Shown in pieces: positions 32,511 to 57,686 of a DNA stretch of 64,000 bases; positions within the stretch are counted from its first letter, which is position 1, and every line of letters starts with the position of its first letter. The translations under genes were made by a program, and so were the position numbers. The DNA comes from an uncultured Gemmatimonadales bacterium (GTDB lineage: Bacteria > Gemmatimonadota > Gemmatimonadetes > Longimicrobiales > RSA9): assembly GCA_963708135.1 (NCBI GenBank), contig OY970192.1, positions 5,056,001 to 5,120,000 of the forward strand, read 5' to 3'. The notes under the pieces are model-generated. The model made no database searches. It was not told the DNA's origin and saw only the letters and a program-made list of their open reading frames with translations.

Positions 32511-32552
32511 CATGTGTACTGTAGACGGTAACCATGCGCCCGGAGCTGCCCC

Positions 32553-40506: not shown

Positions 40507-42231
40507 GTGAGCAACAGGTTCGTTGGCCGCCCGGAAGCCGGGCCGGGGGAGTCATCCGCCGCCGTGGAATCGGCGGCGAGGGGCGCCACGCGCCGCGCGT
40601 TCCTGGCGGATGCCCTCTGCGCCGCCTGCGCCCTCGCCCTCGCCCCGCTGCGGAGCCTGGTGGGCCCGCGGACCGGGAGGCGCGCGGGCGGTCTCCGGGC
40701 GGCGTCGCCTGCGGCGGTGCCGTTGCAGGCGACGGGGCCCGTCACGCCGCCGGCGCCCTACGGCCCGCTCCCCACGCCGCGTCAGCTTCGCTGGCACGCG
40801 ATGGAGCTCACCGGCTTCCTGCACTTCGGCGTGAACACGTTCACGGACCGGGAGTGGGGCTACGGCGACGAGTCGCCATCACTCTTCGCTCCGACGGATT
40901 TCGACGCCGACCAGATCGTCGAGGCGGCGCGCGCGGGCGGCATGAAGGGGCTGATCCTCACCTGCAAGCACCACGACGGCTTCTGCCTCTGGCCGTCGCG
41001 CTACACGCGCCACTCGGTGGCGGCGAGCCCGTGGCGCGGCGGCAGGGGCGACGTGGTGAGAGAGGTCTCGCGCGCGTGCGAGCGGCAGGGGCTGCGCTTC
41101 GGCGTCTACCTCTCCCCCTGGGACCGGAACCGCGCCGACTACGGCCGCCCGAGCTACCTGGCGTACTACCGCAATCAGCTCCGCGAGCTGCTCACGGGCT
41201 ACGGCCCCATCTACGAGGTCTTCTTCGACGGCGCGAACGGCGGCGACGGCTTCTACGGCGGCGCCCGCGAGACCCGGCGCATCGACCGGAAGACGTACTA
41301 CGACTGGCCGGACACCTGGGGGCTCGTGCGCGAGCTGCAGCCCGACGCGGTGATGTTCAGCGACGCCGGGCCCGACGTCCGCTGGGTCGGCAACGAGCGG
41401 GGCGAGGCCGGCGAGACCTGCTGGGCGACGCTGGACCGCGCCGACTTCGTCCCCGGCGACGCCGACGCCGCCCGCCTCGTCCGCGGCGACCGCCCCGGCA
41501 CCGACTGGGTCCCGCCCGAGAGCGACGTCTCGATCCGCCCGGGCTGGTTCTACCACGCCGTGGAGAACGGGAAGGTGAAGAGCCCCGAGGGGCTGGTCGA
41601 GCTCTACTTCACGTCCGTCGGCCGCGGCGCCTCGCTGCTGCTCAACGTGCCGCCCGACCGCCGCGGCCGCATCCACGAGACCGACGCCCGGGCGCTCCTC
41701 GGCTTCCGCCAGGCCCTCGATGCGACGTTCTCCAGCGACCTCGCCGCGCGCGCCGCCGCCACCGCGAGCAACGAGCGCGGCGGCGGGCGGGATCCGCGCT
41801 TCGTCGCCTCGAACGTGCTGGATGGCCGCCGGGACACCTACTGGGCGAGCGACGACGACGTCCACACCCCCGCGCTCACCCTCGACTTCGGCCGCGACGT
41901 CACGTTCGACGTCATCCGGCTGCGGGAGCACCTGCCGCTGGGGCAGCGCATCGAGGCGTTCGCGCTGGACGCCTGGGCGGCGGGCGGGTGGTCGGAATTC
42001 GCGCGCGGGACGAGCATCGGCAGCTGCCGGCTGGTGCGGGTGGCGCCGACCACCGCCGCGCGGCTGCGCCTGCGGATCGTGAAGGCGCCCGTGTGTCCGG
42101 CGGTGGCGGAGGTGGGGGTGTTCGCCGCGGCGTCGCCGGCGCCGGGTCAGGGCGAGCGGAGCAGCCGTCAGATGGGCTTGACCGCGACCACCTCATCGAG
42201 TCCCGCGAAATCCGCCGGGTTGCGCGTGTAG
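40507..42231 (+). CDS. Alpha-L-fucosidase (GH29) with Tat signal and F5/8-type C-terminal domain
   Basis: TRRAFL Tat motif; FLHFGVNTFTDREWG, LTCKHHDGFCLWP, YLSPWD, SIRPGWFYH, LLLNVPPD. Confidence 0.9.
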   Translation: MSNRFVGRPEAGPGESSAAVESAARGATRRAFLADALCAACALALAPLRSLVGPRTGRRAGGLRAASPAAVPLQATGPVTPPAPYGPLPTPRQLRWHAMELTGFLHFGVNTFTDREWGYGDESPSLFAPTDFDADQIVEAARAGGMKGLILTCKHHDGFCLWPSRYTRHSVAASPWRGGRGDVVREVSRACERQGLRFGVYLSPWDRNRADYGRPSYLAYYRNQLRELLTGYGPIYEVFFDGANGGDGFYGGARETRRIDRKTYYDWPDTWGLVRELQPDAVMFSDAGPDVRWVGNERGEAGETCWATLDRADFVPGDADAARLVRGDRPGTDWVPPESDVSIRPGWFYHAVENGKVKSPEGLVELYFTSVGRGASLLLNVPPDRRGRIHETDARALLGFRQALDATFSSDLAARAAATASNERGGGRDPRFVASNVLDGRRDTYWASDDDVHTPALTLDFGRDVTFDVIRLREHLPLGQRIEAFALDAWAAGGWSEFARGTSIGSCRLVRVAPTTAARLRLRIVKAPVCPAVAEVGVFAAASPAPGQGERSSRQMGLTATTSSSPAKSAGLRV

Positions 42232-42569
42232 AGCGGCAGGTGGTTCGCGACGGCGGTCGCCGCGATCAGGAGATCGGCCAGGCGCGCGCGGCTCGATCGG
42301 CCCGTGGCACGGACGGCCGCGAAGATCCGCCCGTACGCGCGCGCTGCGTCCCCATCGAACGGGAGGGCATCCCAGGTCGCGGCGGCCCACTGCAGCCGAT
42401 CCTGCCGCCGCGCCCGCTCGAGCTCGTCGGCCGTGGCGTGAGGCCCGGCGGCCAGCTCCGCCAGCGTTACCGCGGCGATCGCCGTCTCTTCCGGCAGGAG
42501 CTCCGGGTCGATCACGTCAAGATCGATCACGACCGACGTGTCCAGGAGACCGCTCGGCGGCTCAGCCAT
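42168..42569 (-). CDS. VapC PIN-domain toxin
   Basis: LLDTSVVI, VTLAEL, ADLLIAATA, LYTRNPADF. Confidence 0.9.
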   Translation of the reverse strand: MAEPPSGLLDTSVVIDLDVIDPELLPEETAIAAVTLAELAAGPHATADELERARRQDRLQWAAATWDALPFDGDAARAYGRIFAAVRATGRSSRARLADLLIAATAVANHLPLYTRNPADFAGLDEVVAVKPI

Positions 42570-42813
42570 CGACCGACGAATCGATGACCGCGTCCACCTC
42601 ACGCCGGAACCGCGCCGCATCGATCCGGGGCGCGCCCACGGCCGCCTCGGCAATGCTCGCGCGCGGCACGAACCGCCTTGGCTGGATCGGCCTCAGCTCC
42701 GCGACCGGCGTCCCGTTGCGCGTCACGATCACGACCTGCCCCGCCTGCACCTCGCGCAGCACCGCCGCGGATTCGTTGCGCAGCTCTCGCTGCGTGACCG
42801 TTCGTCTCTTCAT
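42562..42813 (-). CDS. Phd/YefM-family antitoxin
   Basis: VTQRELRN...VIVTRNGTPVAEL; overlaps the vapC start. Confidence 0.9.
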   Translation of the reverse strand: MKRRTVTQRELRNESAAVLREVQAGQVVIVTRNGTPVAELRPIQPRRFVPRASIAEAAVGAPRIDAARFRREVDAVIDSSVDG

Positions 42814-42821
42814 GGCGTCCA

Positions 42822-42839
42822 ATGTAGCACATGTAGCAC
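42822..42839 (-). promoter_or_regulatory. Putative antitoxin operator (tandem TGTAGCAC)
   Basis: ATGTAGCAC ATGTAGCAC immediately upstream of the antitoxin start. Confidence 0.45.
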
Positions 42840-42917
42840 GCCGGACCAAGATTGTCCGGCCGCAAGACAGCCGGGCACGGGTCACGGGCAGCGGCACGGA
42901 AGACGGGCAGAACGAGC

Positions 42918-43217
42918 CTACGACTCCCGGACCGTCAGCGCGGGGACGCTGCGGAAGGAGCGCGCGTTTCCGGTGACGATCTCGTCGCCCCGGAAGAGCG
43001 CCGTGCTGGCAATCAGGAGGTCGGAGGTGGGGAGGCGAGTCCCCTCCTTTCGCAGGCTCGCGTCCACCTCGGCGAAGATCCGCATGACGGGCAGGGTGAT
43101 CGCGACGACCGGCACCGCGGCCAGCAACGACTCCACGAACTCCTCCCGGCGCGCCCGACGTTGCGGACTCTCCGCGCGCCAGCAGCCATGAAGCAGCTCG
43201 CCCGCGCTCCTGGCCAT
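42918..43217 (-). pseudogene. 5'-truncated VapC PIN toxin
   Basis: SAGELLHG...SDLLIASTAL...VTGNARSF present, but the N-terminal DT motif and a cognate antitoxin are missing. Confidence 0.7.
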
Positions 43218-43241
43218 CGCTGGATGCGGTACGCCGCGGCG

Positions 43242-43268
43242 TTGACATGCGGCAAGCATGCTGTCATG
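43242..43268 (+). promoter_or_regulatory. Promoter/operator of the FitA-like TA operon
   Basis: TTGACA overlapping palindromic CATGC-GGCAA-GCATG; near-identical copy at 63844. Confidence 0.5.
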
Positions 43269-43276
43269 TTTTGCGC

Positions 43277-43507
43277 ATGTCTAAGATGATCCAGGTCCGC
43301 AACGTGCCCGACGCCTTGCACCGCACGCTCAAGGCGCGCGCAGCCCTCGCCGGGATGTCGCTGTCGGACTACCTGCTGGCGGAGCTCGAGCGGGCGGCGG
43401 CGCGGCCCACCGCCGATGAGATGCGCGCGCGGCTGGCATCGCGGGAGCCCGTCGAGCCCGGCACGCCGGTGGTCGAGGCGGTCCGAGCGGAGCGCGACGC
43501 GCATTGA
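43277..43507 (+). CDS. Ribbon-helix-helix antitoxin (FitA/VapB-like)
   Basis: MIQVRNVPDALHRTLKARAALAGMSLSDYL. Confidence 0.88.
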   Translation: MSKMIQVRNVPDALHRTLKARAALAGMSLSDYLLAELERAAARPTADEMRARLASREPVEPGTPVVEAVRAERDAH

Positions 43508-43893
43508 TCGTCGTCGACGCCTCCGCGGTGCTCGAGCTGCTGCTCCGGACGCAGGCGGCCGAGGCGGTGGAGGCCCGGCTGCTCTCGGGCGAGGCGTTGC
43601 ACGCGCCGCACCTGCTCGACGTCGAGATCGCGCAGGTGCTGAGGCGCTACTGCCGGGCGGGCCAGCTCGGCGCCGCGCGCGCCGCCGAGGCGCTGGCCGA
43701 TCTCGCCGACCTCCGCATCGAGCGCCATCCACACGACCTCTTCCTGCCGCGCATCTGGGCCCTCCGCGACAACCTCACCGCATACGACGCCGCCTACGTC
43801 GCGCTCGCCGAGGCGCTGGACGCGCCGCTGCTCACACGGGACCGGCGCCTGGCCGGCGCGGCCGGACACGGGGCGCGGGTGGAGGTGGTGTGA
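43504..43893 (+). CDS. VapC PIN-domain toxin
   Basis: IVVDASA, APHLLDVE, NLTAYDAAYVALAE, LLTRDRRL. Confidence 0.92.
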   Translation: MIVVDASAVLELLLRTQAAEAVEARLLSGEALHAPHLLDVEIAQVLRRYCRAGQLGAARAAEALADLADLRIERHPHDLFLPRIWALRDNLTAYDAAYVALAEALDAPLLTRDRRLAGAAGHGARVEVV

Positions 43894-44161
43894 AGGGGCG
43901 GCTCGCGCTGCCCGAGGTCGCCGGCTCCCGGGGCCAGGGGCGGGTGGAGCGTGCGCGACGTCGCCTGGGGGTCCGTCCAGCTCGTCGTCCGAGGCTCCAG
44001 GAATGAGAACGGAAGGCGTGGTCATGGACTGGCGAGGAACCACCGTGCCCGGGACGCATCCTGGCATGAGAGATCTCGCAAGGGGCGCCTGCCCCCACGG
44101 TGGTCAACGAGATCTCGCTCGGTTGGCGGGATGCCTCTCGTCGTCGGTGGCGAGCATCGTG

Positions 44162-44596
44162 CTACTCCTGCAGCACGTCCATTCCCAGCGTTCGCGCCGC
44201 GTCGGCCAACGCGCCATCGAACACCGCGAAACGGAACTCCGCGGCTCCGCCGACACGCGTCCATATGGCTTCCGCCGCGGCGAGATGGACGCTGTCGTAT
44301 CCGCGCAGCCGAAGCTCCACCGCGAGATCCCCCGCCCGCCGCACGAGCGGCCAGTCCGCTTCGATCACATCGAGCTCAGCCCACGTGCGCTCCAGGTCGG
44401 CGAGGAGGCCCTGAATCGCTCGCGGCCCGAGGCCGCGCGCCCGGCCACCGCGCGCCAGCGCGGCGCATGCCTCAGCGTAGCCGATCATATGGCAGCCCCG
44501 AAACTCCGCCTGCTCCGCCGCCTCGCGCACTAGCGTCAACCCCGGCTCATCGGAGAACAGCTTCACGAGCGCCGACGTGTCGAAATAGACGATCAC
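44162..44596 (-). CDS. VapC PIN-domain toxin
   Basis: YFDTSALVKL, LRGYDSVHLAAA, FAVFD. Confidence 0.9.
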   Translation of the reverse strand: MIVYFDTSALVKLFSDEPGLTLVREAAEQAEFRGCHMIGYAEACAALARGGRARGLGPRAIQGLLADLERTWAELDVIEADWPLVRRAGDLAVELRLRGYDSVHLAAAEAIWTRVGGAAEFRFAVFDGALADAARTLGMDVLQE

Positions 44597-44880
44597 CCAC
44601 GGTCCTCACTGACGATCTCCGCCAGCGTCTTCCTGCCCGCCCGATGCGCCAGGGCCTCGCGCGCCCCGAGGGGTGTCCGCCCCGCCGCTCCGGGCCGGAT
44701 CCAGGGAAGCTTGCGCAGCCTCTCCGCTACGCCCGCCTCCGGTGTCGCCGGCACCTCTCCCGGGCCCACGATGCGGGCGACCGGCTTTCCACGGCTCGTG
44801 ACGACGACCACCTCTCCCTTCTGCACCCGGCGCAGATACTCGGAGAGCCGTGCCTTCAGATCGCGGACCGACACATCCAT
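44593..44880 (-). CDS. Phd/YefM-family antitoxin
   Basis: VSVRDLKARLSEYLRRV...VVTSRGKPVARI; RBS GGAGG. Confidence 0.9.
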   Translation of the reverse strand: MDVSVRDLKARLSEYLRRVQKGEVVVVTSRGKPVARIVGPGEVPATPEAGVAERLRKLPWIRPGAAGRTPLGAREALAHRAGRKTLAEIVSEDRG

Positions 44881-44994
44881 GGCGCCCCTCCTTGTGGTCA
44901 CGCAGCTCCTTAATGTAGTCACGGTGTGGAGGGATGTCGAGAGGTTCGGCCGGACAACCCCTGCGCTGCCTCATGAACCGCGCGCGGGGGGGAG

Positions 44995-45213: not shown

Positions 45214-47595
45214 CTACGCGGGTGGTGGCCTTGGCTCACGAATGTGATGCACGCCTCGCACGCCTGGACTCGCGGGCCGGGCGCGCAGGGGGCGTGGTGG
45301 CGGCGCGGAACGCCGGGTGGCTGCCGCGAGCCGGAGCGCCGCGAACCGCACGTACCTGCGCGCGTCCGCGGGCGCCAGCACCTCCGCCTCGCCCCCGTAC
45401 TGCAGGATGTGACGCGCCAGCCAGTCGAGGTCCGCCAGCGGGTGCCAGGCGACGAGGCCGTCGTCCGGCTCGCGAGTCCCCTCCACCCGCTCGCCGATCC
45501 AGGGCGCCACGCGCGCGGAGTAGCGGACGCGCACGCGCCCGACGCCGGTCCCGCCGAATACGCCGCCTTCCGCGGTGGTGAACGCGGCGAGGTCGAGGTC
45601 GGCCGGCGGGGTGAAGGCCTCGTCGCATGGCTCGGCGCGCAGCACCCGGTCCATGCGAAAGACCCGGCGACCTCGATTGGCATCGTCCGCGAGCACGTAC
45701 CAGTGCCCCTCCGCGAAGAGCAGTCGGTAGGGCGCGATGCGCCGCCAGCCCGGCGCCGCCGCGTCCGGCTTCAGGTACTCGATCCGGCACCAGCGCCGCT
45801 CCCGCGAGGCGGCGGCGACGACCCCATCGAGCATCTCCCCGGCCAGATCGAAGGCGACGGAGCCGCCTCCGTCCTCCGGGGCCGATCCACGATCCCGCGC
45901 CACTCCGTCCACCGGCGCGGCGCCATCGCGTGGCGCCATTCCGCCCTCCGGCACCACTCCCCCGCGCGGCACGGCTCCGCCGTCCGGCGGAACGCGGCGC
46001 CGGGCGAGAAGCCGCTCGAGCGAGGCGGCCAGCGAACGAAGCGCCGTGGCGCGGCCCGGGCCCGTCTGCGCAGCGAGCGCCCGCAGCGCGAGCGACAGCG
46101 CGACCGCTTCCCGAGCCGTCAGCCGCGGCGGCCGCGTGAATTCGCCCGGCGCGTGCACCTCCACGCGCCCATCCTCGATCAGGATCTGCAGGTCTCCCGG
46201 CGCGCCCGGCTCGAGGTAGTACGCGCGGTCCGCCAGCTCCTGGAGGTCGCGCAGCAGCGCGGGCACCGATGCACCGGTCCGCGATGCCAGCTCCGCCAGG
46301 GCGACGCCGCCCGGCCGCCGCGCCCGCGGCAGGATATCGAGGAGCCGCGTGAGGCGGTCGGCCGCCGTCGCGCGGCCGGACCCCCGATCGGCCGGCTCCG
46401 ACCTGGGCTGCAGCCCGTCCGGGCGCGCCGACTCCGGGCGCGCGCTCTCGCGCGACCGCGCCTCGCGCTCCGCCAATGGCGGCCCGGCGTGCGCCCGCGC
46501 GACGCGCAGGGCGAGGCGACGGAGCTCGACGCGAAGGGCGGGCGGCTCCACCACCTCCGCCGCGCCCAGCCACGCGGCCAGCCAGCGCACGAACGGCTCG
46601 GGGCGGCGGACCTCGAAGAGCCGCACCGCCGAGCCGTCCGCCCGCCGCTCCACGAGCTGGCCGTGCCCGCCGCGCGCGGCCAGCAGCGAGGCAGGGTAGT
46701 GGAAGAGGAGGGTGACCGGCAGCGTCGCCTGCGGGGAGCCCAGCTCCCACGCCGAGCGGCCGAGGTACGACTCGATCCGGAAGTCGCGCGGCACCTCGAA
46801 GGCCACGCCATCAGCCTCCGGGCCCGCGGGCACCAGCGCGCGGATCCGGCCAACCCGGAACGTCCGCACCTCGCCCGTCCCGCCGCCGGTCGCGCCCACG
46901 GCGTACCACTGCCCCGCCCGGAAGAACAGCCCGTACGGCGCGAGCACGCGCACTCCCGGCCGGCCGCCCGCGGGCGCTGCGTAGGTGAAGCGAACCGTGC
47001 GCCGGCTGAGGAGCGTCTCGCACAGCGCCGGCATCCACGCCGCCGCCGCGACCGCGTCGGGCGGGGGGACGATGACGGGCGCCCCGTCGCCGCCGTCAAC
47101 CAGCGGCAGATCGAACGTCAGCTTGCGCAGCGCGCCGGCGAGCGGCGCGGCCAGGGGAAAGCCGGGGATGGACTCCGCGCCGGCGAGCGCCCGGGCGACG
47201 GCATCGGCCTCCCGCCGCGGCAGCTCGACCTCCGCCACCGCCGCCCGGCCACCGGGTCGTTCCGTGGCGCCCTCTCCGCCGTTCACGAGACGCAGCACCG
47301 GCAGGTAGAGGTCGCGCCGGTCGAGCACGTAGCCCGCGCTGCCCGCATCGCCCGCGCGCGCCCGATCCTCGACGGTCCGGATCGGGATGCCCGCCTCCCG
47401 CAGCTCGGCCAGGTCGCGCTCGAAGGTCCGCTGCGCGCTGGCCTCCGCCCGGGGCGTCCCGGGCGCGCGGAGGCACCGGTAGCCCGGCAGTGCGTCGAGC
47501 AGCACCTCCGCGGCGACCGGCATCCGGTGTGCGAGGAGGAGCGCGACGAGGTCGAAGAAGCGCTGGAGCTTGGTGGGCGGAGGCATCGGTGCCAT
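45214..47595 (-). CDS. Fused PafB-PafC-like transcriptional regulator (2 x [wHTH-WYL-WCX])
   Basis: PafB-like RTFERDLAELREAGIPI with WYL (PYGLF...WYAVG...RTFRVGRI), then PafC-like RLTRLLDILP...LLRDLQEL with a second WYL (PYRLL...HWYV...VFRMDRV) and WCX (ILQYGGEAEVLAP). Confidence 0.88.
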   Translation of the reverse strand: MAPMPPPTKLQRFFDLVALLLAHRMPVAAEVLLDALPGYRCLRAPGTPRAEASAQRTFERDLAELREAGIPIRTVEDRARAGDAGSAGYVLDRRDLYLPVLRLVNGGEGATERPGGRAAVAEVELPRREADAVARALAGAESIPGFPLAAPLAGALRKLTFDLPLVDGGDGAPVIVPPPDAVAAAAWMPALCETLLSRRTVRFTYAAPAGGRPGVRVLAPYGLFFRAGQWYAVGATGGGTGEVRTFRVGRIRALVPAGPEADGVAFEVPRDFRIESYLGRSAWELGSPQATLPVTLLFHYPASLLAARGGHGQLVERRADGSAVRLFEVRRPEPFVRWLAAWLGAAEVVEPPALRVELRRLALRVARAHAGPPLAEREARSRESARPESARPDGLQPRSEPADRGSGRATAADRLTRLLDILPRARRPGGVALAELASRTGASVPALLRDLQELADRAYYLEPGAPGDLQILIEDGRVEVHAPGEFTRPPRLTAREAVALSLALRALAAQTGPGRATALRSLAASLERLLARRRVPPDGGAVPRGGVVPEGGMAPRDGAAPVDGVARDRGSAPEDGGGSVAFDLAGEMLDGVVAAASRERRWCRIEYLKPDAAAPGWRRIAPYRLLFAEGHWYVLADDANRGRRVFRMDRVLRAEPCDEAFTPPADLDLAAFTTAEGGVFGGTGVGRVRVRYSARVAPWIGERVEGTREPDDGLVAWHPLADLDWLARHILQYGGEAEVLAPADARRYVRFAALRLAAATRRSAPPPRPLRARPASPGVRGVHHIREPRPPPA

Positions 47596-47713
47596 TTCGG
47601 GATGAGGGGCTGGCCGTGCGGGTCCATGGGTATCGCCGGAATGACCGGCGGACAAGGACGACATCGCCGAGCGGGGCGGGTACCCGCCGCTGGCGCTGCC
47701 GTTTCGCGCTCAC

Positions 47714-47735
47714 TGTCGGTGGGTCCTCTTACGTT
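47714..47735 (+). promoter_or_regulatory. PafBC-type (RecA-NDp-like) promoter motif oriented toward the cas operon
   Basis: TGTCGG-tgggtcctct-TA-cgt-T is an exact TGTCGG-N10-TA-N3-T, about 120 bp from the PafBC-like gene start. Confidence 0.65.
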
Positions 47736-48142
47736 GTGGAGCGTGGACGGTGAAGCCGCCGGCGGGCGGCGGCGTTGACCGCGGCGACGTCGCCATCGAT
47801 TCTCTTGCGCGGATCCGGAAGCGGGACTACCCTGGGCTGTGGCGCTGGCGTTCGAAAGAAACCGTCGGCGCCGCGTTCCCCGGCCGCGATTCCGCTCTGA
47901 CCCCCTCCGGACGAGTCGATGGCCGCAACCGCCGGTCGCGCCAGCAGTGGCGCGACCGACGCGTGTCCGCCGCCTGCGCTCTGACCAAGGGTTCCGTAGG
48001 TGAACGTCCGACACTGGCCTCTTCGACCTATCGGGCCCGAAGAATGGGCGGGGTAACGCCCTCGGAGGTCCGAAGGAGGGCCGGTGATTTTTCGTGCCGC
48101 TCGACCTCATGAATTCGTTGACCCTGGACATGGAGTGAACCA

Positions 48143-49375
48143 GTGGCCAATGCGCTGACGCACAATGTGCTCACCCGCGCCGTGACGGGTGGCGCCGCGG
48201 CGTTCCGCTGCCGTCGAAGGCTGCAACCTGCCGGTGGGCCTGGAGACAAGGTTTTCCCGCCGACCTTCGCCGGGGCGGTGTACGCCATCGAGCAACGGCG
48301 CCTGCCCGACCGGGAGGCGCCCGTCCAGTGCGTGCTCCTCGATAGCGTACAGAGCCAGGCGAACCGGATGGAGCTGGCGCTGCAGGAGGCGGTGGATTCG
48401 GGCCGCTTGCGGTTGCCGCTCGTGGTGGTCAACTTCTCGGAGCACGATCCGACGGGCGACCTCGAGGCGGACGAAGAGGCAGGCCGATTCCTGGACGCCG
48501 TGGGCAGGATCACGACCCTCCAGGCGCCACACCGCCTCGCCGACGCGATTCTGCGCGACAGCGAGCTCGACGGCGTGCGATTCCGCAAATCCGAGAAGGG
48601 GAAGACCCTGAACCGCGCGAGCCTCGCCAATGCGACGCCGCTCTTCGAGCTCTGTCCGACGGCGCTGGTCTTCGGGATGTGGGATTCGACGGGGCCGAAG
48701 GGTGGCCTGGGCCCGAAGTTCGAGCGTGCGGTGGTCTCGGAGATCGTGGGGATCGGCGCGGAGTGGAAGGACGATTACCGGGCCCGCGGCGTGCGCCGTG
48801 ATCCGCTCGAGATCACGAAGAACGTGATGGTCCTCGCCGACGGCGACCGGGCCCTCAGCAAGGTGGCCGAGGGCAAGGAGAAAGGCGTCCGCCCGTCAGA
48901 GATCAATCACTCGAGCGTCCCGTTCGACTCCCCCAACTCCGGCGTAACGATCGAATACGCCGAGCAGGTGACGACGCTCTCCCTGATCGCGCTCCGACGA
49001 CTCCACTTCCCGATCGATGGCGCCACGACGACCGAAGCAGACGCGTCCGCCCGCACCGTTCTGGCCGCGCTCGGCCTGTGCGCCGCCACCCTCGCATTCG
49101 AGAACGGCGTCGGACTGCGCTCACGTTCGCTGTTGTGGCCGGAGGCCTCCATCACGTGGGAGCTCCTGGAGCGGCCGGGGAAGGAACCCCAACGCTATTC
49201 GCTGGCGTCTGCGGATACGCAGCAGCTGCTGGCCGACGCTGTGGCGGCGGCCCGATCCGCCGGCCTGCCCTGGCCGGAGCAGCCGCTCCTGCTCAAGCCG
49301 TCTGCGGCACTGGTCAACCTGGTGCGCCGCAGCCAGGTCGAGCTCGTCCGCCAGGGCGCGGCGGAGGACGGATAA
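48143..49375 (+). CDS. csb1: Type I-G (I-U) Cas7 backbone
   Basis: LQPAGGPGDKVFPPTF, VLLDSVQSQANRME, APHRLADA, PTALVFGMWDS, GLRSRSLL. Confidence 0.92.
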   Translation: MANALTHNVLTRAVTGGAAAFRCRRRLQPAGGPGDKVFPPTFAGAVYAIEQRRLPDREAPVQCVLLDSVQSQANRMELALQEAVDSGRLRLPLVVVNFSEHDPTGDLEADEEAGRFLDAVGRITTLQAPHRLADAILRDSELDGVRFRKSEKGKTLNRASLANATPLFELCPTALVFGMWDSTGPKGGLGPKFERAVVSEIVGIGAEWKDDYRARGVRRDPLEITKNVMVLADGDRALSKVAEGKEKGVRPSEINHSSVPFDSPNSGVTIEYAEQVTTLSLIALRRLHFPIDGATTTEADASARTVLAALGLCAATLAFENGVGLRSRSLLWPEASITWELLERPGKEPQRYSLASADTQQLLADAVAAARSAGLPWPEQPLLLKPSAALVNLVRRSQVELVRQGAAEDG

Positions 49376-49377
49376 GC

Positions 49378-50955
49378 GTGTTCTCGCTCGGCATCCGCTA
49401 CCTCAATGGCTTCTCCGTCGCGGCCGAGCCGGACTCCTATGAGCGGGCCGAATGGCCGCCCCACCCGGGCCGCGTGTTCATGGCTCTGGCGGCCGCCCAC
49501 TTCGTTACCGGCGGCGACCCGGCCGAACGCGCGGCGCTCGAGTGGCTCGAGGCGCTGGAGGACGCGCCCGCGATCCGGGCGGGCGAGCACCACGAGCGGG
49601 CGGTCGTGATCCAGTACGTGCCGGTGGACGACAAGGCCGGCCCCGCGAAGGCGCTGCTGCAATCCCTACCGCTCACGCGCGACCGGCAGCCGCGCACCTT
49701 CGCGCATGCCGCCCTCGACGACGACCTGGTCTACCTGAGCTGGCCGGGCGCCGAGCCGCCCGCGCGCGTGTTGGGCGCGCTCGAGACACTCTGCTCCAAG
49801 GTCACCCGCATCGGCCATTCGTCATCGCTGGTGCAGATGTGGATCGCCGATGAGGACGAGGCTGGTGAGCCGAACTGGGTGCCGGATGATTCGCGCTCCG
49901 CCCTGCACCTGCGCACTGCCGGACCGGGTACGCTCGCCGACCTCGAGCGGTTGTACGACGAAACGGCTGTCGAGACTTACGCCTCGCTCAAGGCGGCGGC
50001 GGAAGACGACACCGACAAGAAAGCTCAGCGCGCCGCGAAGAAGCAGCTGAAGCACGAGTTCGGAAACCGGCCCCCGCAGCAGCTCCGCCCACGACTCTCG
50101 ATCTACCAGGGCTATGCGCGGCCGGCGACGCGCGGCGAGGATGGAGCCGCCTCGGGCACGGTGTTCAATCCACACCCGCTCGTGCTGATGCTCGAACGGG
50201 ACGAGCCGGTGCGGCGCGAGCTCGATCTGCCGTGCACGCTCGCCGTGGTGCAGCGCTTGCGCGACGCCGTCCTCAGCCACAGCAACGGGTTGCCGGACCG
50301 GATCCGGTCGCTGCTCTCCGGCCACGAGCCGGATGGCACGCCGCTCGACGCGCCGCATCTTGCCTTCCTCCCCCTGGCCTTCGTAGGCCACCCACATGCC
50401 GACGGCCGCCTGCTCGGCGTCGGCCTCGTCTTTCCGGCTGATACTGCGCGCGAGGAGCGGCGCCTCGCGCTCCAGGCGGTCGCGCGCGTTCGGCACCTCG
50501 CACTCGGACGGCTGGGCAGGTGGAGGATTGCCGGGGAACGCCGCTCCAGTCCGCCATGGAACCTGCGGCCCGAGGCTTGGACCGCCTTTCCGCGCGGCGC
50601 GACACACTGGTCGACCGTCACGCCGGTCGTCTTCGACCGCCACCCGAAGAACAAGGAGCGCGCCGCGTACGAGCGCGAGGTGGCCGCCATGATCGCGGGC
50701 GGTTGTATGCGTATCGGCCTGCCCCGGCCGCGTGAGGTGATCGTGACGCAGATCTCGGCCCACCCTGGCGTGCCACCCGCGTTCGAGTTCCCACGGCTTC
50801 GGCGCAAGGACGGCAGCGAGCGCCGCCACACGCACGCGATCCTCGTCTTCGATCGACCGGTGTGCGGGCCGGTGCTGATCGGCGCGGGGAGGTACAGGGG
50901 GTATGGGGTGGGGAGGGCGATACAGGCGGCCCCTCAACCCCACTCATCGGGCTGA
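49378..50955 (+). CDS. csb2: Type I-G Cas5/Cas6 fusion
   Basis: AEWPPHPGRVFMALAA, LEWLE, HLAFLPL, WSTVTPVV, C-terminal Cas6 G-loop GPVLIGAGRYRGYG. Confidence 0.92.
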   Translation: MFSLGIRYLNGFSVAAEPDSYERAEWPPHPGRVFMALAAAHFVTGGDPAERAALEWLEALEDAPAIRAGEHHERAVVIQYVPVDDKAGPAKALLQSLPLTRDRQPRTFAHAALDDDLVYLSWPGAEPPARVLGALETLCSKVTRIGHSSSLVQMWIADEDEAGEPNWVPDDSRSALHLRTAGPGTLADLERLYDETAVETYASLKAAAEDDTDKKAQRAAKKQLKHEFGNRPPQQLRPRLSIYQGYARPATRGEDGAASGTVFNPHPLVLMLERDEPVRRELDLPCTLAVVQRLRDAVLSHSNGLPDRIRSLLSGHEPDGTPLDAPHLAFLPLAFVGHPHADGRLLGVGLVFPADTAREERRLALQAVARVRHLALGRLGRWRIAGERRSSPPWNLRPEAWTAFPRGATHWSTVTPVVFDRHPKNKERAAYEREVAAMIAGGCMRIGLPRPREVIVTQISAHPGVPPAFEFPRLRRKDGSERRHTHAILVFDRPVCGPVLIGAGRYRGYGVGRAIQAAPQPHSSG

Positions 50956-50961
50956 TAGCCT

Positions 50962-51948
50962 ATGTCTGGACCCGCCGCCACCTGGGACTTCACGGCGCAG
51001 ACCGACCTTTGGACAGGTAGGGTCGTTGGGATCAACGAGCGGAAGGGGAGAGTGGAGCTGCGGGAGAGCATCAAAAACTCGCGGCTGATCCCAACCGGCC
51101 TGCTCGGGTCCATCCGCTGGTGGTTCGAAGTTGTGGTGCGCGGTCTCGGCGGGAACGCATGCGACCCCACCAGGACCAAGTGTCAGGATGGCAAACACTG
51201 CGTCGTCTGCGAGCTGTTCGGTTGCACCGGCTGGGCCCGGAAGTTCCGTTTCCAGGTGCTGGACGGGAATGGAGAGATCCTGGGCTCCGCGATCAAGAAG
51301 GATTCGAAGTTCAAGGTCCGATTCGTACCGCTACGGCCCATCGCCAGCGAGGAAAGGGCGCTGCTCGACCTCACCCTCCGGCTCATCGCCGAGTACGGTG
51401 CGGTCGGTGGGAAGACAGTGCTCAAGCCTTCAGACGAGCCGAACCGCGCGGACGCGCTGCACCATCTCGACTATGGTGTGGTGTCTCTGGACAGCAGCCC
51501 CGGGGTCGCTGTCGGGGACGAGCGAACGCTGAAAGGCTATCTCCGCCAGGTCTCGCAGCGAGCCGCGCACGACACAAGCAATGCCACCTGGGCCTCGCTC
51601 GCGAACTTCTGGTGCGTGAACGGCAGGTACTTGACGCGCGCGAAGGCTGATGCGAGCACATTCAACAGGGTTTTGGGCCGCCAGGAACCCAAGCAGCAAG
51701 CGCAGACGCTTGCGAGCAACGGAAACGCAGATCGCTGGCTCGCCGGCTCACAGCAGGAGAGCAAGAAGGTCTTCAGCTTCAAGAATCCGCCCCGGACGTT
51801 CGGCTTCGTGCTGCCGGGGACGATTTCACTCGACGAGATGAAGACGCGGCTGCAGCCAGCCTGGTCGGACCTCCGGGATGGCGAGTTCCTCACCGGCGCG
51901 GATGTCCTGTCGAAGCTCGTTCCCGCGGCATCGGAGCCCGCTCGATGA
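50962..51948 (+). CDS. cmr1: Type III-C RAMP Cmr1
   Basis: TDLWTG, TGLLGSIRWWFEVVVRGLGG.ACDP, CVVCELFGCTGWARKF, YGAVGGK. Confidence 0.88.
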   Translation: MSGPAATWDFTAQTDLWTGRVVGINERKGRVELRESIKNSRLIPTGLLGSIRWWFEVVVRGLGGNACDPTRTKCQDGKHCVVCELFGCTGWARKFRFQVLDGNGEILGSAIKKDSKFKVRFVPLRPIASEERALLDLTLRLIAEYGAVGGKTVLKPSDEPNRADALHHLDYGVVSLDSSPGVAVGDERTLKGYLRQVSQRAAHDTSNATWASLANFWCVNGRYLTRAKADASTFNRVLGRQEPKQQAQTLASNGNADRWLAGSQQESKKVFSFKNPPRTFGFVLPGTISLDEMKTRLQPAWSDLRDGEFLTGADVLSKLVPAASEPAR

Positions 51949-52859
51949 CCTTCGATCACTACGCCGCCTTGGCGGACCAGCGGACGTGCCCGCGCTCAGT
52001 GTCGAAGCCGGGCGGGTTCGCGTCCGGGTTCGTGGACGGCTGCACCGTATGGTCGGGAACGGAAGCGGAGAAGAACAACGCGCGGCGTTGCTACCTCAAA
52101 CATCTGGATGGCGCCGCTTCGCTCGCGCCCCCCCCGGAGCTGAAGCTCGCTTCCGATTTCACCGCGCTCCCCGCCCCGGGCTGGATCGGGATCGAGGTCG
52201 ACTTCAAGCTCGAAACGCCGTGGTATTCCAGGGATGACCGGCGCTTCCACGTTTTGGACAACCCGGTGCGTAAGGACCGCGTCTTCGGCGTGCCCTTCAT
52301 GGCGGCGGCGAGCTGGAAGGGACTCCTCCGCTGGGCCTGCAGGATGCGTGCGGGTCTGCTCGAGCACCTGGCGTCGCAGGGCGGCAAGCTGGCCGGGTGG
52401 GACGAGCCCGAGTGGATCGTGCACCTGCTCGGCAACGAGAAGGGTGAAGGCGAGTCGTTCCAGCGTGGTGCGTTGGCGTTTTACCCGACGTGGTTCGACC
52501 GGCTCGGCTTTGAGGTCATCAACCCGCACAGCCGCCGGACGCGGGCGGGCACGCAGCCCATCCACTACGAGGTCGTACCGCCGGGCGCGACCGGCGTCCT
52601 GCAGCTACTGTACGCACCGTTCGTCGGCCGAACCGCCCAACCTGCCGGTCACGGGCTGATTGATCTGATCGGCTCCATCGAGGACCTGCTCGAAACGTAC
52701 GGCATCTCGGCCAAGCGCACGGCAGGTTGGGGCACGGCGACCGCCACCGCGTGGAAAGCGTTCCGGGTTGGAGAGCCCGGAATCCAAGCGGAGAACGCGT
52801 CGGACCTCGCGCGGCAATTGGAGCCCTGGCTGGAATCAACGGAGCGCGGCTATGGCTGA
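51945..52859 (+). CDS. cmr6: Type III-C RAMP Cmr6
   Basis: TPWYSRDD, DNPVRKDRVFGVPFMAAASWKGLLR, EVINPHSR...GTQPIHYEVVP, GISAKRTAGWG. Confidence 0.85.
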   Translation: MTFDHYAALADQRTCPRSVSKPGGFASGFVDGCTVWSGTEAEKNNARRCYLKHLDGAASLAPPPELKLASDFTALPAPGWIGIEVDFKLETPWYSRDDRRFHVLDNPVRKDRVFGVPFMAAASWKGLLRWACRMRAGLLEHLASQGGKLAGWDEPEWIVHLLGNEKGEGESFQRGALAFYPTWFDRLGFEVINPHSRRTRAGTQPIHYEVVPPGATGVLQLLYAPFVGRTAQPAGHGLIDLIGSIEDLLETYGISAKRTAGWGTATATAWKAFRVGEPGIQAENASDLARQLEPWLESTERGYG

Positions 52860-55581
52860 GTTTGCGCCCGCCGCGACACTCCGCGACCACCGCTCGCTGC
52901 TCTTGTCCATGGAGGCTGTGGGGTGGCTGCACATGACCGGCAAGTGCCGCCTGGCGTTCCTGCGCGAGCACGGCGGACAGGGGTCGGGCTACGACGACCT
53001 CCGCTGGTTCGAGAACGAGAGCCCGCCGTTCCCGTGGGACGAACTGCTGGGCTGGCTCAGGACGCGGTACGCGAACGCAAACGGCACTGCGCTCCCGTGG
53101 CCGGGCACGCTCACCGGTTTCCTGACTCGGCACCGGGGTCGGAACGCGGGACTCCTAGGTCTGCTGCAGGCGGGCCATGGCATTGCCTCCGGCATCGAGA
53201 AGAACATGCCTGCCGCGGCAGCGAAATATCTCCAGCAGGATGCCACGCACATGTGGCTCTCCTCGGCCTTCGGACGCCCGGTGCGCAATCTGCTCGCGGA
53301 TCCGCCCGGGTCGTTGAGCCAGGCAGGCTGGGCGCGGTTGCTCGAGGAGATGCAGCGCATCCTACGAGACCTCCATCAGCTCGGCTCCGCATCCGCCACG
53401 GATCTCGGCTCGTGGTCAACCTGGCGCGAAGATGCCATCGGCGCCGGGAGCGTCCTCCGGCACGCGTTCGGCTCCACGCTCGCGGAAACCCGCCTCCCGA
53501 ACAATGAGGTCACGCTCTGGGATCAGTCCTACGTCGCCGCGGCGCTGTTCAAGAGCGCCCTGGCCAGTGCCCTGCTCGACGGTAGGTCCTTCCCCTGGAA
53601 TGACGCGGCAATCAAGAGCCAAGTCCGCTGGCGGCTGCTGACGGTCGGGATCGGAGCGGATCACTTCGAAGCGCGGGCCGTGCGCATCGGCGACTGGACT
53701 GGGGCACGGCTGGCGCTCGACCGCTTCTTCGGAGGCGTGCGACGACTCGTCGAAGTCGACCTGGCGGTGGGCTCGTTGCTCTACGCCGACGGCGGCGTAC
53801 TCGTGTTCTCGTTTCCTGGCGAGCGCACTGATGGCGCTGGCGCTGTGGATGCATCCGGGTGGACGGATTGGCTGCAGGAGGCCGTGGACCAGTCCGCGCG
53901 CGGGCTCGCGCTCGAGCTGCCGCCGTATGTGCGCCTGACCGAATCGACGCGCTCGCTGGTCCCGATGACGCGGGAGATCGCGAACGCGCGAAGCGTTCTC
54001 ACCATTCCCGTGCACCGCGCGTGGGACGTCACCGGATCCGGCGAGACCGGCCACGTGTGTCCCGTGTGCCTCGTGCGCCTGAACGGCGCGCCCACCGACA
54101 AGCAGAAGCCGTGCGCCACCTGCCGCGAGCGCCGAACCCACCGGCTCGATGCCTGGCTCGGGGGCGAGCAAGGGGACGACACGATCTGGATCAGCGAGGT
54201 GGCGGACCAGAACGACCGTCTCGCCCTCCTTACGCTGAGTCTCAATATTGAGCCGTGGCTGGACGGCAGTCGGCTGGATGCGCTGCGTACCCAGGCAGTG
54301 TCCGAATGGCGCCGTCACAACCCGACGCTCGGAGGGAGCTCCAACCCGATTGATTCCGCTAAGCCGTTTGCAAGCCTCGCTGCATACATACAGGGGACCC
54401 TCGGAAGCTTCGACGCGAACAATCCGGTGCTCAGGAGTCTGCAGGAAGGCTATCAGCACGACACCGGCTGGGAGACGTTCTTCCAGAAGGTGGTCGAGGA
54501 CCGCGCGGACGCGCCTCTCTGGAACTCCCTGGATGACCATGGCAGGGCCCGCTGGCTCCTGCATCAGCTCTTCTGCAAGCTCGCCTCTCCTGGTCGCGTT
54601 CACCGCTTCTGGCGGCAGGCGGAGGGCTTCTTCGCCAACCTGCTGGCCGAATTCCGGCAACTAGCAGCGGCGGACGCGAACCGCTGCCGCGTGCGGCGGC
54701 TCGTGCTGACGCCCGGCGCAGACGGCGACCTCTCCGTGTGGCGAGACCGCGAGGTCTACAACGGCCGGGTCGGCGAAGCGCCGCTCAGCCTCCTCTACCG
54801 TGGCCAGAGCCAAGACTTCCTCACGGTCTGCAACCTGGCGCGCCTGCTGCGTGCGGAGGAGGACGGCGAGGCGCTGGTCCGGCGCTCGCAGGAAGGGATC
54901 GAGCTCCGCGGCGGCGACAGCGACCTGCCGGTCAGGTTCCGGATCGCGAGTGTGGAGCCCGCAGATGGCCGAGCCGGCGTCTACCATCCAGTCATCCCCC
55001 TGGAACTGAGCCCGTTGCGCTTCCGGGTGCTGCTTCCGCTCTCCGCAGCGTCGGCCTGCGTCGAGTGCGCGATCGGCATCTGGAACGACGAGATGGCCCG
55101 CGTCTGGGACCGTCTCCCCCTCCGCGCCGGCATCGTTGCCTTTCCACGCACGGTGCCGTTCCAGGCGGTGATCGAGGCTGCCCGCTCCCTCGAGCATGCT
55201 CTGGAAGAGCAGCCGGCGGAGGAGACGTGGCGCGTCACCGAGCGTGACGCCCGCGACGGGATCGTCGCGTTCCGACTCGTTCGTCGCGACGGCGGATCCG
55301 AGCTCCGCTCGATGCCGGTCACGTTACCGGACGGCCGGCGCGATGTGTTCTACCCGTACTGCCGCGTCGAGGATGGGGCAGTGCGCACCGCGCTCGACTT
55401 CCAGCATCCGGACGGCCAGACCTTTCGCCACGCGCTCGACCTGCGCCCTGGCGACGGCATCGTCGTGGCGCCGTCCCGCATCGCCGGTGTCTTTCTCGAC
55501 AGTAGCGCGCGCCGCTTCGACGAGGTGCAGGTGCGCCCGCTGGCGGAGTGGACGCGGATGCGCTGGTGGGCAGAGCCGTGA
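52852..55581 (+). CDS. csx11: Type III-C Cas10-like large subunit, probably 3'-truncated
   Basis: LAETRLPNNEVTLWDQSY, EVDLAVGSLLYAD, Zn ribbon CPVC...CATC, TIWISEVADQNDR, WLDGS, SPGRVHRFW; ends abruptly after FLDSSARRF. Confidence 0.85.
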   Translation: MAEFAPAATLRDHRSLLLSMEAVGWLHMTGKCRLAFLREHGGQGSGYDDLRWFENESPPFPWDELLGWLRTRYANANGTALPWPGTLTGFLTRHRGRNAGLLGLLQAGHGIASGIEKNMPAAAAKYLQQDATHMWLSSAFGRPVRNLLADPPGSLSQAGWARLLEEMQRILRDLHQLGSASATDLGSWSTWREDAIGAGSVLRHAFGSTLAETRLPNNEVTLWDQSYVAAALFKSALASALLDGRSFPWNDAAIKSQVRWRLLTVGIGADHFEARAVRIGDWTGARLALDRFFGGVRRLVEVDLAVGSLLYADGGVLVFSFPGERTDGAGAVDASGWTDWLQEAVDQSARGLALELPPYVRLTESTRSLVPMTREIANARSVLTIPVHRAWDVTGSGETGHVCPVCLVRLNGAPTDKQKPCATCRERRTHRLDAWLGGEQGDDTIWISEVADQNDRLALLTLSLNIEPWLDGSRLDALRTQAVSEWRRHNPTLGGSSNPIDSAKPFASLAAYIQGTLGSFDANNPVLRSLQEGYQHDTGWETFFQKVVEDRADAPLWNSLDDHGRARWLLHQLFCKLASPGRVHRFWRQAEGFFANLLAEFRQLAAADANRCRVRRLVLTPGADGDLSVWRDREVYNGRVGEAPLSLLYRGQSQDFLTVCNLARLLRAEEDGEALVRRSQEGIELRGGDSDLPVRFRIASVEPADGRAGVYHPVIPLELSPLRFRVLLPLSAASACVECAIGIWNDEMARVWDRLPLRAGIVAFPRTVPFQAVIEAARSLEHALEEQPAEETWRVTERDARDGIVAFRLVRRDGGSELRSMPVTLPDGRRDVFYPYCRVEDGAVRTALDFQHPDGQTFRHALDLRPGDGIVVAPSRIAGVFLDSSARRFDEVQVRPLAEWTRMRWWAEP

Positions 55582-56290
55582 CGGCGGCGGACACTGCGGT
55601 GAGCCGGACTGTCCGATCTGCACGGTTTTCGGCTTCGCCCGTGGCAACAGCGGCGGCTTCGCCGGGTTGGCGGCATTCAGCGACGCGCACGTGCTCCTGT
55701 TTCCGGTCGCCACGCGGGAGGGGCCCGTGTGGATCACCTGCCCGGGCGCGCTGCGCGGCCTGAGCGCGCTGAGCGAGCTGCCCGATATCAGCGAGAACGC
55801 AGTCCTCCGCGCTGGCAACGCCACAGGCTCGTTGAACCTCGGCTGGCTCGTCCTCCCCGTGAAAGGCCGGAACGGCGAGTGGGCGAGCGTGGATACCGAG
55901 CTCGGTGCGCTCGGTGTACCGGATCACGTTAAGCGGACCTGGGCGATCATCTCCGACAAGGTCTTCTCGCACGTCGTGAACAGCAATCTGGAGGTCCGCA
56001 CTTCGGTCTCGATCGACCCCGAGACCGGTGCCGCGGAGGGAGGTGCGCTCTTCACCTATGAAGCCCTCCCGCGCGGGACGGTGCTCGTGTGGCAGGTCAC
56101 GTGCCGGCACCCCGGGCATTTCCGGGTCGGAAAGAGCGACGTGAGTGCCGTTGCCGATGCAGGGGTGGTTCATAGCGTCGTCGGCGAAGGGCACGGCTAT
56201 CTCGAATTCCTGGGCATCGGCGGGATGGGCACCCGTGGCATGGGGCGCTTACGGGTCCTGAATGCTGCGGCAGGCGAGGGAGGCACGTGA
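55559..56290 (+). pseudogene. cmr4: Type III-C Cmr4 lacking its N-terminus and start codon
   Basis: HCGEPDCPICTVFGF, FSDAHVLLFPV, VNSNLEVRTSVSIDPETGAAEGGALFTYEALPRG, LGIGGMGTRGMG; no start or N-terminal RAMP strand upstream. Confidence 0.8.
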
Positions 56291-56655
56291 TGGAGAACCT
56301 GGACCTCAGGTGCGCGGAGCTCGGCGCGACGCTCGCGGGTGCCCACGGCGTGGAGGAGAAAACCCTGACGGACGCGCTGGCGGTTCTTGAGGAGCAGGGC
56401 GTCTATGCCTTCTTCCTCTACCTGAGCGCGCCCGGAAGAAATGGCGGAGGTGAGGTGTCCCGAGCGTGCCATAAGTTCCTGCAGCAGGAGCCCAGCGACA
56501 AGGCGCTCCTGCCTGCGGGCGGCGATGTCCTCAGGAGCGTCCGCGAATCGCTCGCGAACGAGCTCGACAACCTGCTCCTCGCGAGGGACCTGTTGCGCCA
56601 GGCTCTGGTCTACGGCCGCTATCACGCCAAGGCCGAATCCCGGGGTATCCGGTGA
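56287..56655 (+). CDS. cmr5: Type III-C small subunit Cmr5
   Basis: NLDLRCA, ALAVLEEQGVYAFFLYL, LLARDLLRQALVYGRYHAKA; position in the III-C gene order. Confidence 0.8.
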   Translation: MMENLDLRCAELGATLAGAHGVEEKTLTDALAVLEEQGVYAFFLYLSAPGRNGGGEVSRACHKFLQQEPSDKALLPAGGDVLRSVRESLANELDNLLLARDLLRQALVYGRYHAKAESRGIR

Positions 56656-57530: not shown

Positions 57531-57686
57531 GGTTGTACCGTTCGCCTCTCAGACCGTCACGCCCGTCGGTGGACGGCGTACCCGAGTGACGCGCGGTGGT
57601 CAACCGGCACGCCGATCCTCTTCGACCCGCACATACCGGCACACATACACGTCTGAGGGTGATCCGCCAACGTCTTCGAGAATGAC

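Follow-up and report, generated by a model that had tools for sequence, protein, structure and literature searches.

Locus and genome

The window considered here, a stretch of 64,000 nucleotides (nt) at G000:C1:5056001-5120000, belongs to an uncultured Gemmatimonadales bacterium whose genome (G000) is a single contig of 5.45 Mb with a guanine-plus-cytosine (GC) content of 72%, and a soil metagenome is the only sequencing run that contains window DNA. A protein of two WYL-domain modules (P0001) is encoded on the minus strand of the window, divergently from csb1, which leads into a run of CRISPR-associated (cas) genes (CRISPR, clustered and regularly interspaced short palindromic repeats), and the region between the two genes contains the promoter motif of PafBC, a mycobacterial factor which, when loaded with single-stranded DNA (ssDNA), connects the promoter with sigma region 4 (PMC8635444, PMC11804915). 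It is moderately probable that this motif is a PafBC-type hybrid promoter serving the cas operon and that P0001 is its single-chain, ssDNA-sensing activator. Loci and genomes used for comparison are denoted by L- and G-numbers, respectively; three of the genomes (G015, G016, and G019) are unpublished and enter only the family tallies of PafBC-like and Pup ligase genes and two of the 19 motif matches at 10-nt spacing described below (L007 and L010), and the csb1 comparisons (G077, G045, G043, G014, and G126) are free of them.

The fused PafB-PafC-like protein

A sequence-only reading of this locus had described one protein with a double arrangement of helix-turn-helix (HTH), WYL, and WCX domains divergent from csb1 and had likened it to PafBC, and both descriptions hold. 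Pfam finds in the open reading frame (ORF) two WYL domains (the best in the B half), two WCX domains (the best in the C half), and an HTH_PafC domain (Table 1), while the N-terminal HTH, missed by Pfam, aligns to that of Mycobacterium smegmatis PafB (7p5x_AY, E 7e-5; 9fnd_X, E ~6e-5). Homologues align from the equivalent of residue 24-27 onward, so that the true start of the protein is probably at 47595 or 47586, rather than at 47664. The best sequence match in the Protein Data Bank is the naturally fused PafBC of A. aurescens (6sj9, E 1.4e-22), followed by M. smegmatis PafC (7p5x), and identity to the solved PafBC chains is ~22-26%. An AlphaFold model, for which 11 sequences served as input (mean predicted local distance difference test score 65.8), is confident in the domains and disordered in the linkers, including the low-confidence stretch that connects the B and C halves in frame. 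A Foldseek search with this model places 6sj9 at the top (E 1.4e-29, 775 columns), then PafC and PafB of 9fnd, and after them DriD, CapW, and BrxR; TM-scores against the solved structures are low, in keeping with the flexibility of a multi-domain chain.

The residues with which PafB handles DNA are largely kept. In PafB, R46 and R50 read the GTC triplet of the promoter with the help of E42, A43, K5, R8, S40, K52, R56, and Y76 (PMC8635444), and eight of these ten are retained in P0001 when aligned to 7p5x_AY, with S40 changed to R and K52 to L. Likewise, of the WYL residues R181, Y196, R204, R208, R211, and R214, needed in PafB for ssDNA binding (PMC11804915), five are retained and R204 is replaced by T; in the C half, two WYL arginines fit an F-R-x-D-R pattern in the alignment to 6sj9. 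P0001 also matches the PADLOC profiles "WYL, associated_signaling" (E 7.8e-57). Judged by architecture and key residues, P0001 would be classed as PafBC, and judged by genomic context it would not; the comparative evidence that the neighbour of csb1 is a putative PafBC-type ssDNA-sensing factor is good.

A PafBC-type motif ahead of csb1

The published PafBC promoter consensus is tGTCgg(N10)tA(N3)T (PMC8635444). Direct reading of the intergenic region confirms TGTCGG on the cas strand, followed by 10 nt, TA at 47730-47731, 3 nt, and T at 47735, so that the sequence points at csb1 and matches the consensus exactly, as the sequence-only reading had claimed. A -35-like hexamer is missing upstream of the motif, a sigma-70 consensus scan of 47400-48400 gave no promoter, and transcription is predicted to start at ~47740-47743. 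The imperfect inverted repeats in 47550-48200 number 21, none of which is evidently an operator or has comparative support. The case for more than a chance match rests on conservation in a duplicated leader and in orthologous csb1 loci, given below, and this comparison provides good evidence for the motif as a conserved and functional promoter element of the csb1 operons of the host family.

Homologues of csb1 occur in four of the 72 other genomes of the host family. In two of them, G077 (Csb1 59% identical) and G045 (57% identical), both with the gene order csb1-csb2-cas3-cas3ext, a strict TGTCAG-N10-TAnnnT stands ~70 nt (TGTCAGAGTCCGTCCATACATT) and ~75 nt (TGTCAGACCCCAGTCATAGGAT) upstream of csb1, respectively, and the DNA around these two motifs is unalignable with the window leader or with each other. 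In the third, G014, the sequence comes near the motif (TGTCAGACCCTGTTAGCACATT), with CACATT in the -10 position, and in the fourth, G043, no motif was found upstream of csb1. Of 18 csb1 loci from the phylum's other families, in some of which csb1 is possibly not the first operon gene, none has the strict motif within 500 nt upstream. The conservation in homologous loci to which the sequence-only reading had looked is therefore borne out in two of the four family operons vs. none of the 18 loci elsewhere.

A duplicated non-coding leader

The DNA between the motif and csb1 exists in a second, paralogous copy ~17 kb downstream, outside the window. The two copies (window 47708-48047 and G000:5120551-5120889) share 86% identity over 342 nt, in a homology that sets in 6 nt ahead of the motif, and similarity continues to the csb1 start. 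In the second copy, the motif reads cGTCGGTGGGTCCTTTTACATT (cGTCGG-N10-TACATT), which keeps the GTC triplet, the spacing, and TAnnnT. The coding DNA that flanks the leader in the two modules is less alike (77% in the 3' part of csb2 and 79% in the nucleotidyltransferase region).

Because insertions and deletions between the copies break every reading frame, the leader is non-coding. A small ORF within it (P0002, 47750-48112) was rejected as a gene; it is arginine-rich, belongs to no family, and has its frame broken by the same copy-to-copy differences. The leader folds with a z-score of -2.33, and none of 100 shuffled sequences folds equally well. A strong hairpin is present in both copies, and the terminator-like hairpin before csb1 is matched in the second copy, at the corresponding position, by a GC hairpin followed by GATTTTCG. 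The Rfam search of 47400-48400 gave no match at E up to 1, and no solitary CRISPR repeat was found in either leader copy with up to nine substitutions allowed. The leader is known in these two copies only. Its hairpins suggest either an attenuation step or a separate RNA of 350 nt.

PafBC-like genes and pupylation in the host family

Apart from P0001, the G000 genome holds an unfused PafB-like and PafC-like pair (481897-484547), whose identity to the two P0001 halves is ~42% and whose PafB-like member carries the same R-x-F-E-R recognition helix. At the position of K52, lysine is found in six of six aligned relatives and leucine in P0001. The unfused pair (L098, G000:C1:479883-484547) is split by a 195-aa ORF (aa, amino acids) without a family match.

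A search of 24 genomes of the host family showed PafBC-like genes in 18. In relatives, pafB and pafC are separate genes with a short overlap of a few bases (as in L011, 3393-4514 and 4507-5487); one open frame longer than 600 aa was seen among 76 metagenome loci in L157, L167, and L191 only, and the loci that match the whole of P0001 are adjacent gene pairs in all those checked (six of 79 loci). A search of genome contigs for close whole-protein relatives of P0001 gave 339 pattern matches, none of which was confirmed. The first 24 named loci with P0001 matches comprise 21 Gemmatimonadota lineages, two entries of "uncultured bacterium," and one of Planctomycetota.

Orthologues of PafBC have been confirmed through linkage with pafA and the Pup-proteasome (Mueller et al., 2019; PMC6789036). 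A search for Pup ligase (PafA) gave no match in G000, and the Pup ligase family is represented in three of 73 family genomes (G016, G021, and G023). As a PafBC-like match is lacking in the two published genomes of these three, G021 and G023, genes for pupylation are uncoupled from PafBC-like genes in the host family. The suggestion of the sequence-only reading that such a system might lie outside Actinobacteria is supported, given that G000 lacks PafA and that the nearest named relatives of P0001 are metagenome-assembled genomes of Gemmatimonadota. Matches of this single protein, as opposed to marker genes, would likewise put the host in or near Gemmatimonadota.

The motif around PafBC-like genes of relatives

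The motif was further traced around 88 PafBC-like loci, nine from same-family genomes and 79 from named genome records. There, the 10-nt spacing gives 19 matches vs. 0-4 at spacings of 5-9 and 11-16, and in the 76 metagenome loci it gives 14 matches vs. 0-2 at spacings of 6-9 and 11-14. Because this enrichment is specific to the spacing, the motif can be regarded, on comparative grounds, as real in the host clade. Recurrent genes 5-75 nt downstream of the motif include the PafB-like gene itself (L003, L006, L007, and L025), AddB-like or PD-(D/E)XK nucleases (L012, L018, and L067), SbcD-like phosphoesterases (L133, L135, and L137), ARPP-1 (L013, L122, and L123), and VWA genes (L042, L070, and L124), which together look like a small mixed regulon of repair and defence genes. 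In L067 and L010, pafB runs leftward and the motif drives its target rightward, the divergent arrangement also seen in the window. The genes behind the motif in relatives also include a DUF1156 methyltransferase (L129), and motif sites in relatives are often clustered within ~20 kb of the PafBC-like pair.

When these target genes were sought in G000, a VWA gene and an AddB-like gene were found, the former with a degenerate TGTCAC-N10-CATCTT and the latter without the motif, while no Metallophos or ARPP-1 orthologue was detected at E 1e-10. The VWA gene lies just upstream of the unfused pair, and in relatives the full motif stands at that place.

The cas operon and neighbouring genes

From csb1 to cmr3, each gene follows closely on the one before, overlapping it or standing a few bases away (Table 1). 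The type III-C set is complete, with six PADLOC profile matches (E 1.1e-14 to 1.6e-94), and Csx11 is also matched by NCBIfam (E 1e-65, under the curated cut-off). Of the type I-G genes, Cas7g, Cas5-6g, Cas3g, Cas4g/Cas1g, and Cas2 were found as NCBIfam equivalog matches, and the cas8g match is a fragment only, in a degraded second module. As the family match of csb2 begins at residue 102, its true start is probably near 49380. The csb1-csb2 pair stands directly ahead of the type III-C set, and likewise csb1-csb2 is followed by cmr1-cmr6-csx11 in G126 (L233, G126:C1:896000-915900). Through its Cas6 activity, Csb2 may supply CRISPR RNA to the type III-C complex; no useful literature was found on Csx11 together with Csb1 and Csb2.

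Table 1. Positions of the features discussed (window coordinates unless a genome or locus is named; residues for the protein layout)
Feature	Position	Strand	Basis or remark
Fused PafB-PafC-like gene (P0001)	45214..47664	-	ORF, 816 aa as longest frame
P0001, B half	HTH-B ~31-115; WYL-B 213-277; WCX-B ~310-390		residues
P0001, C half	linker 395-430; HTH-C 436-550; WYL-C ~625-690; WCX-C 710-778		residues
Candidate PafBC-type hybrid promoter motif, TGTCGGTGGGTCCTCTTACGTT	47714..47735	+	direct reading; consensus of PMC8635444; conservation
Motif elements	-26 TGTCGG 47714-47719; -10 TACGTT 47730-47735	+	10 nt between
Non-coding leader, copy 1	47708..48163	+	homology to copy 2
Leader, copy 2	G000:C1:5120551-5121028		paralogous; outside window
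Strong hairpin	47930..47961	+	14-nt arms, 93% complementary, 4-nt loop
Terminator-like hairpin and GATTTTT	48067..48092	+	~50 nt before csb1 start
csb1 / cas7g	48143..49375	+	GTG start behind GGAG; divergent from WYL gene
csb2 / cas5-cas6g	49078..50955	+	longest form
cmr1	50962-51948	+	PADLOC profile
cmr6	51945-52859	+	PADLOC profile
cas10c (Csx11)	within 52768-55581	+	PADLOC profile
cmr4	within 55196-56290	+	PADLOC profile
cmr5	56287-56655	+	PADLOC profile
cmr3	56652-57530	+	PADLOC profile
Nucleotidyltransferase (MNT-type)	57687-58007		between cmr3 and cas3g
cas3g	58422-61361	+	type I-G
Type I-G Cas3-extension gene	61328-62503	+	after cas3g

The second module (G000:C1:5120551-5140364; L104 from 3552 onward) is decayed, with csb1 and the 5' part of csb2 deleted; it holds IS630 and IS1182 transposase genes, followed by cas4g/cas1g, cas2, and three array segments of 40, 17, and 10 repeats with a 36-nt repeat (G000:5132886-5140364). 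The stretch 57383-58046 of the window is duplicated at G000:5129681-5130303 with 79% identity, and MNT-type nucleotidyltransferase genes occur three times among the cas genes (the one in Table 1, window 63019-63366, and L104 12876-13265). Elsewhere in the genome, a type I-E locus on the minus strand (G000:C1:3644149-3662615), with cas3 (886 aa), cse1-like, cas7, and cas5 genes, adjoins an array of 141 repeats with a 61-nt period. A TGTCAC-N10-TAGACT by a Cas3-like ORF (G000:3661050) was rejected as a motif site, as it lies inside this type I-E cas3 gene.

Directly downstream of the WYL gene, window 42168-44922 contains four PIN-domain ORFs and a Phd/YefM antitoxin, a dense toxin-antitoxin run which indicates that the WYL gene is located in a defence or mobile island. 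Two adjacent ORFs for 594-aa DDE transposases (32532-34316 and 34558-36342) have identical Pfam scores and are thus probably copies of one insertion sequence (IS) element; after them follows a tandem repeat with a 61-nt unit in 5.2 copies (36682-37001).

Proposed regulation and alternatives

In the favoured reading, the -26 and -10 elements, lacking a -35 element, would fire rightward from ~47741, and the transcript would pass through a structured leader of ~400 nt into cas7g-cas5/6g and cmr1-cmr6-cas10c-cmr4-cmr5-cmr3, probably on into cas3g. By analogy with mycobacterial PafBC, the PafB-like HTH of P0001 would read the GTC triplet, its WYL/WCX tunnel would bind ssDNA that arises from DNA damage or from replicating invaders, and the ssDNA-bound factor would let the housekeeping RNA polymerase use the -35-less promoter by bridging to sigma region 4. 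P0001, alone or with the unfused pair, would on this proposal act by activation and not by repression. That L067 and L010 are laid out divergently in this way too argues for a functional adjacency of the WYL gene and the motif.

Motif counts weigh against this reading. The loose form TGTCRG-N10-TANNNT has eight sites in the 5.45-Mb genome, and spacings of 5-9 and 11-16 give two to seven each, so that, taken by itself, the loose form stands close to background in G000. The extended form of the window motif (TGTCGGTG-N8-TACGTT), searched as TGTCRGTG-N8-TANNNT, has two sites, the second of which (G000:2418063) was set aside as it faces a gap between minus-strand genes without a plus-strand gene. 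The sequence-only reading had named both frequency and conservation as checks, of which the first came out near background and the second in favour of the motif, in the second leader and in two of the four family csb1 operons. The genome-wide scan ahead of repair genes that it had also proposed was unfavourable; the recA upstream region of G000 is without the motif, and behind the other seven loose sites no repair gene is recognisable. The counts over the whole genomes of five relatives are also on the unfavourable side, with 47 motif matches vs. 33 for a reversed-pattern control, and in G014 the order is inverted (8 motif vs. 17 control). This modest enrichment implies that any regulon is small.

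Further unfavourable points concern the pairing of P0001 with the operon. No WYL gene stands beside leader copy 2, none is adjacent to the G077 and G045 operons, and in G077, which is 99% complete by markers and in 140 contigs, no WYL domain gene was found at all despite the motif; a 113-aa ORF at a G077 contig end was considered as PafB-like and rejected for want of similarity. The closest csb1 relative, in G126 of another family (75% identity), lacks the motif, as well as any WYL gene in the 8 kb upstream, and no cas gene was found beside the related PafBC-like loci (none of 88 and none of 76), so that the adjacency is unique to G000 and could be fortuitous. The WYL gene also differs in composition from the cas operon (GC 74-81% and third-position GC 0.90, as compared with ~62-74% and 0.81-0.86). 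Because leader copy 2 and the G077 and G045 operons have the motif without an adjacent WYL gene, the promoter appears to travel with the cas module, which qualifies the sequence-only reading.

Much of this would fit an alternative, considered unlikely, in which the promoter is real and is served in trans by the unfused PafBC-like pair, as would have to be so in relatives with no WYL gene beside their csb1 operon, P0001 being a paralogue with another job that could damp transcription at the same -26 element, answer another ligand, or control other genes of the toxin-antitoxin-rich island. The motif and the cas module were duplicated as one, the G045 genome has a PafBC-like pair at another place, and the unfused PafB-like protein keeps the recognition helix, while P0001 is only ~42% identical to the pair and has a leucine at the K52 position. 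The divergent layout shared with L067 and L010 argues against service in trans, as does the retention in P0001 of both the DNA-reading and the ssDNA-binding residues.

The distance from the motif to csb1, ~400 nt with a terminator-like hairpin included, is another difficulty for direct activation of the operon. It would be accounted for if the motif drove a separate RNA of ~350 nt that ends at the hairpin, as a small RNA or an attenuator, with read-through into csb1 as a second, independent checkpoint or with csb1 under a promoter of its own. The hairpin with its GATTTTT and its counterpart in copy 2, the leader's higher identity between the copies than that of the coding DNA, and the favourable fold are all in line with such an RNA, as is the short interval of ~70 nt between motif and csb1 in G077 and G045, which makes the long leader a G000-specific addition. 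Nevertheless, a separate RNA is improbable, given the short T-run, the lack of an Rfam match, the small number of copies, and the absence of a sigma-70-like promoter in the interval from the hairpin to csb1. A motif matched by chance, with P0001 as an ordinary BrxR/CapW-type repressor that acts on another intergenic operator and is released on ssDNA sensing, is very improbable, since the near-background loose counts, the inverted repeats, the G077 motif without a WYL gene, and the strong PADLOC match of P0001 to a type of gene known to be ancillary to cas loci are opposed by the conservation of the motif in the paralogous leader and the related operons vs. its absence elsewhere, and by a double module that best matches PafBC, with CapW and BrxR far behind and the GTC-reading arginines kept.

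Extended beyond the locus, the favoured reading leads to a tentative and still doubtful picture of a complete, Pup-free PafBC-type system outside Actinobacteria, made up of paired or fused PafB/PafC and of -26/-10 hybrid promoters, with a small regulon of repair and defence genes in which an ssDNA-induced CRISPR operon would be recurrent, a single-chain paralogue beside the operon, and the leader hairpin as a second checkpoint. If true, PafBC-style reprogramming of RNA polymerase would be older or more mobile than thought, its mechanism would be independent of the Pup-proteasome and wired to adaptive immunity, and it would be a second, mechanistically different route to damage-induced CRISPR expression after DdaA in Acinetobacter. 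No account in print was found of PafBC-type pairs with their motif outside Actinobacteria, of a PafBC system free of the Pup-proteasome, or of a CRISPR operon as a PafBC target, subscription journals and supplements lying outside the search. The literature searched held nothing on PafBC with Gemmatimonadetes or Gemmatimonadota, and that found on the RecA-NDp motif concerns, by title and abstract, mycobacteria or Streptomyces only.

Comparison with known systems

The class of WYL proteins that occur next to cas loci is already known, and several regulators share parts of the arrangement described here. CapW and BrxR are repressors with palindromic operators that overlap the promoter of the regulated system. 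Like P0001, they are regulators with a winged HTH (wHTH), WYL, and WCX domain that stand beside defence systems (7tb5, 9c5g, 7t8k, and 7qfz); unlike it, they are single-module proteins, and as fold matches much weaker than PafBC (Foldseek E 4e-6 to 1e-4), and the homodimer of separate chains is replaced in P0001 by a double module in one chain. DriD of Caulobacter (8tp8 and 9pfq), the next-best fold match after PafBC, is likewise an ssDNA-sensing wHTH-WYL-WCX activator, but it has a single module, another DNA site, and no cas link. The Sll7009-type regulators of Synechocystis are WYL-domain factors that control CRISPR expression, as P0001 is proposed to do; in contrast, they are described as repressors (PMC6789036) and are not PafBC-like double modules, and no PafBC motif is reported for them.

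DdaA of Acinetobacter and other Moraxellaceae is closer in function, as it belongs to the WYL family and, by activation, ties the DNA-damage response to anti-phage defence, CRISPR-Cas operons among it (PMC12392091); for this reason the sequence-only reading's premise of WYL regulators at defence loci as repressors no longer holds. It differs from P0001 in that it is DriD-like with a three-helix-bundle domain and has its binding site ~50 bp ahead of the start, and the paper sets it apart from the -26 mechanism of PafBC (PMC12392091).

PafBC itself (7p5x and 9fnd; fused, 6sj9) shares with the window the two HTH-WYL-WCX modules in B-then-C order and the -35-less promoter motif, and natural PafB-PafC fusions have been described as actinobacterial, "class C" (PMC6789036). 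PafBC is the master regulator of an extensive DNA-damage regulon to which recA belongs, and its HTH-C activates transcription through contact with sigma region 4 (sigma adaptation). Unlike its actinobacterial counterparts, P0001 has cas and toxin-antitoxin genes as neighbours and no pafA linkage. The mycobacterial PafBC regulon comprises ~150 genes (PMC8635444), whereas no large repair regulon is apparent in G000, with its eight loose sites and none at recA, and the proposed target is a CRISPR operon.

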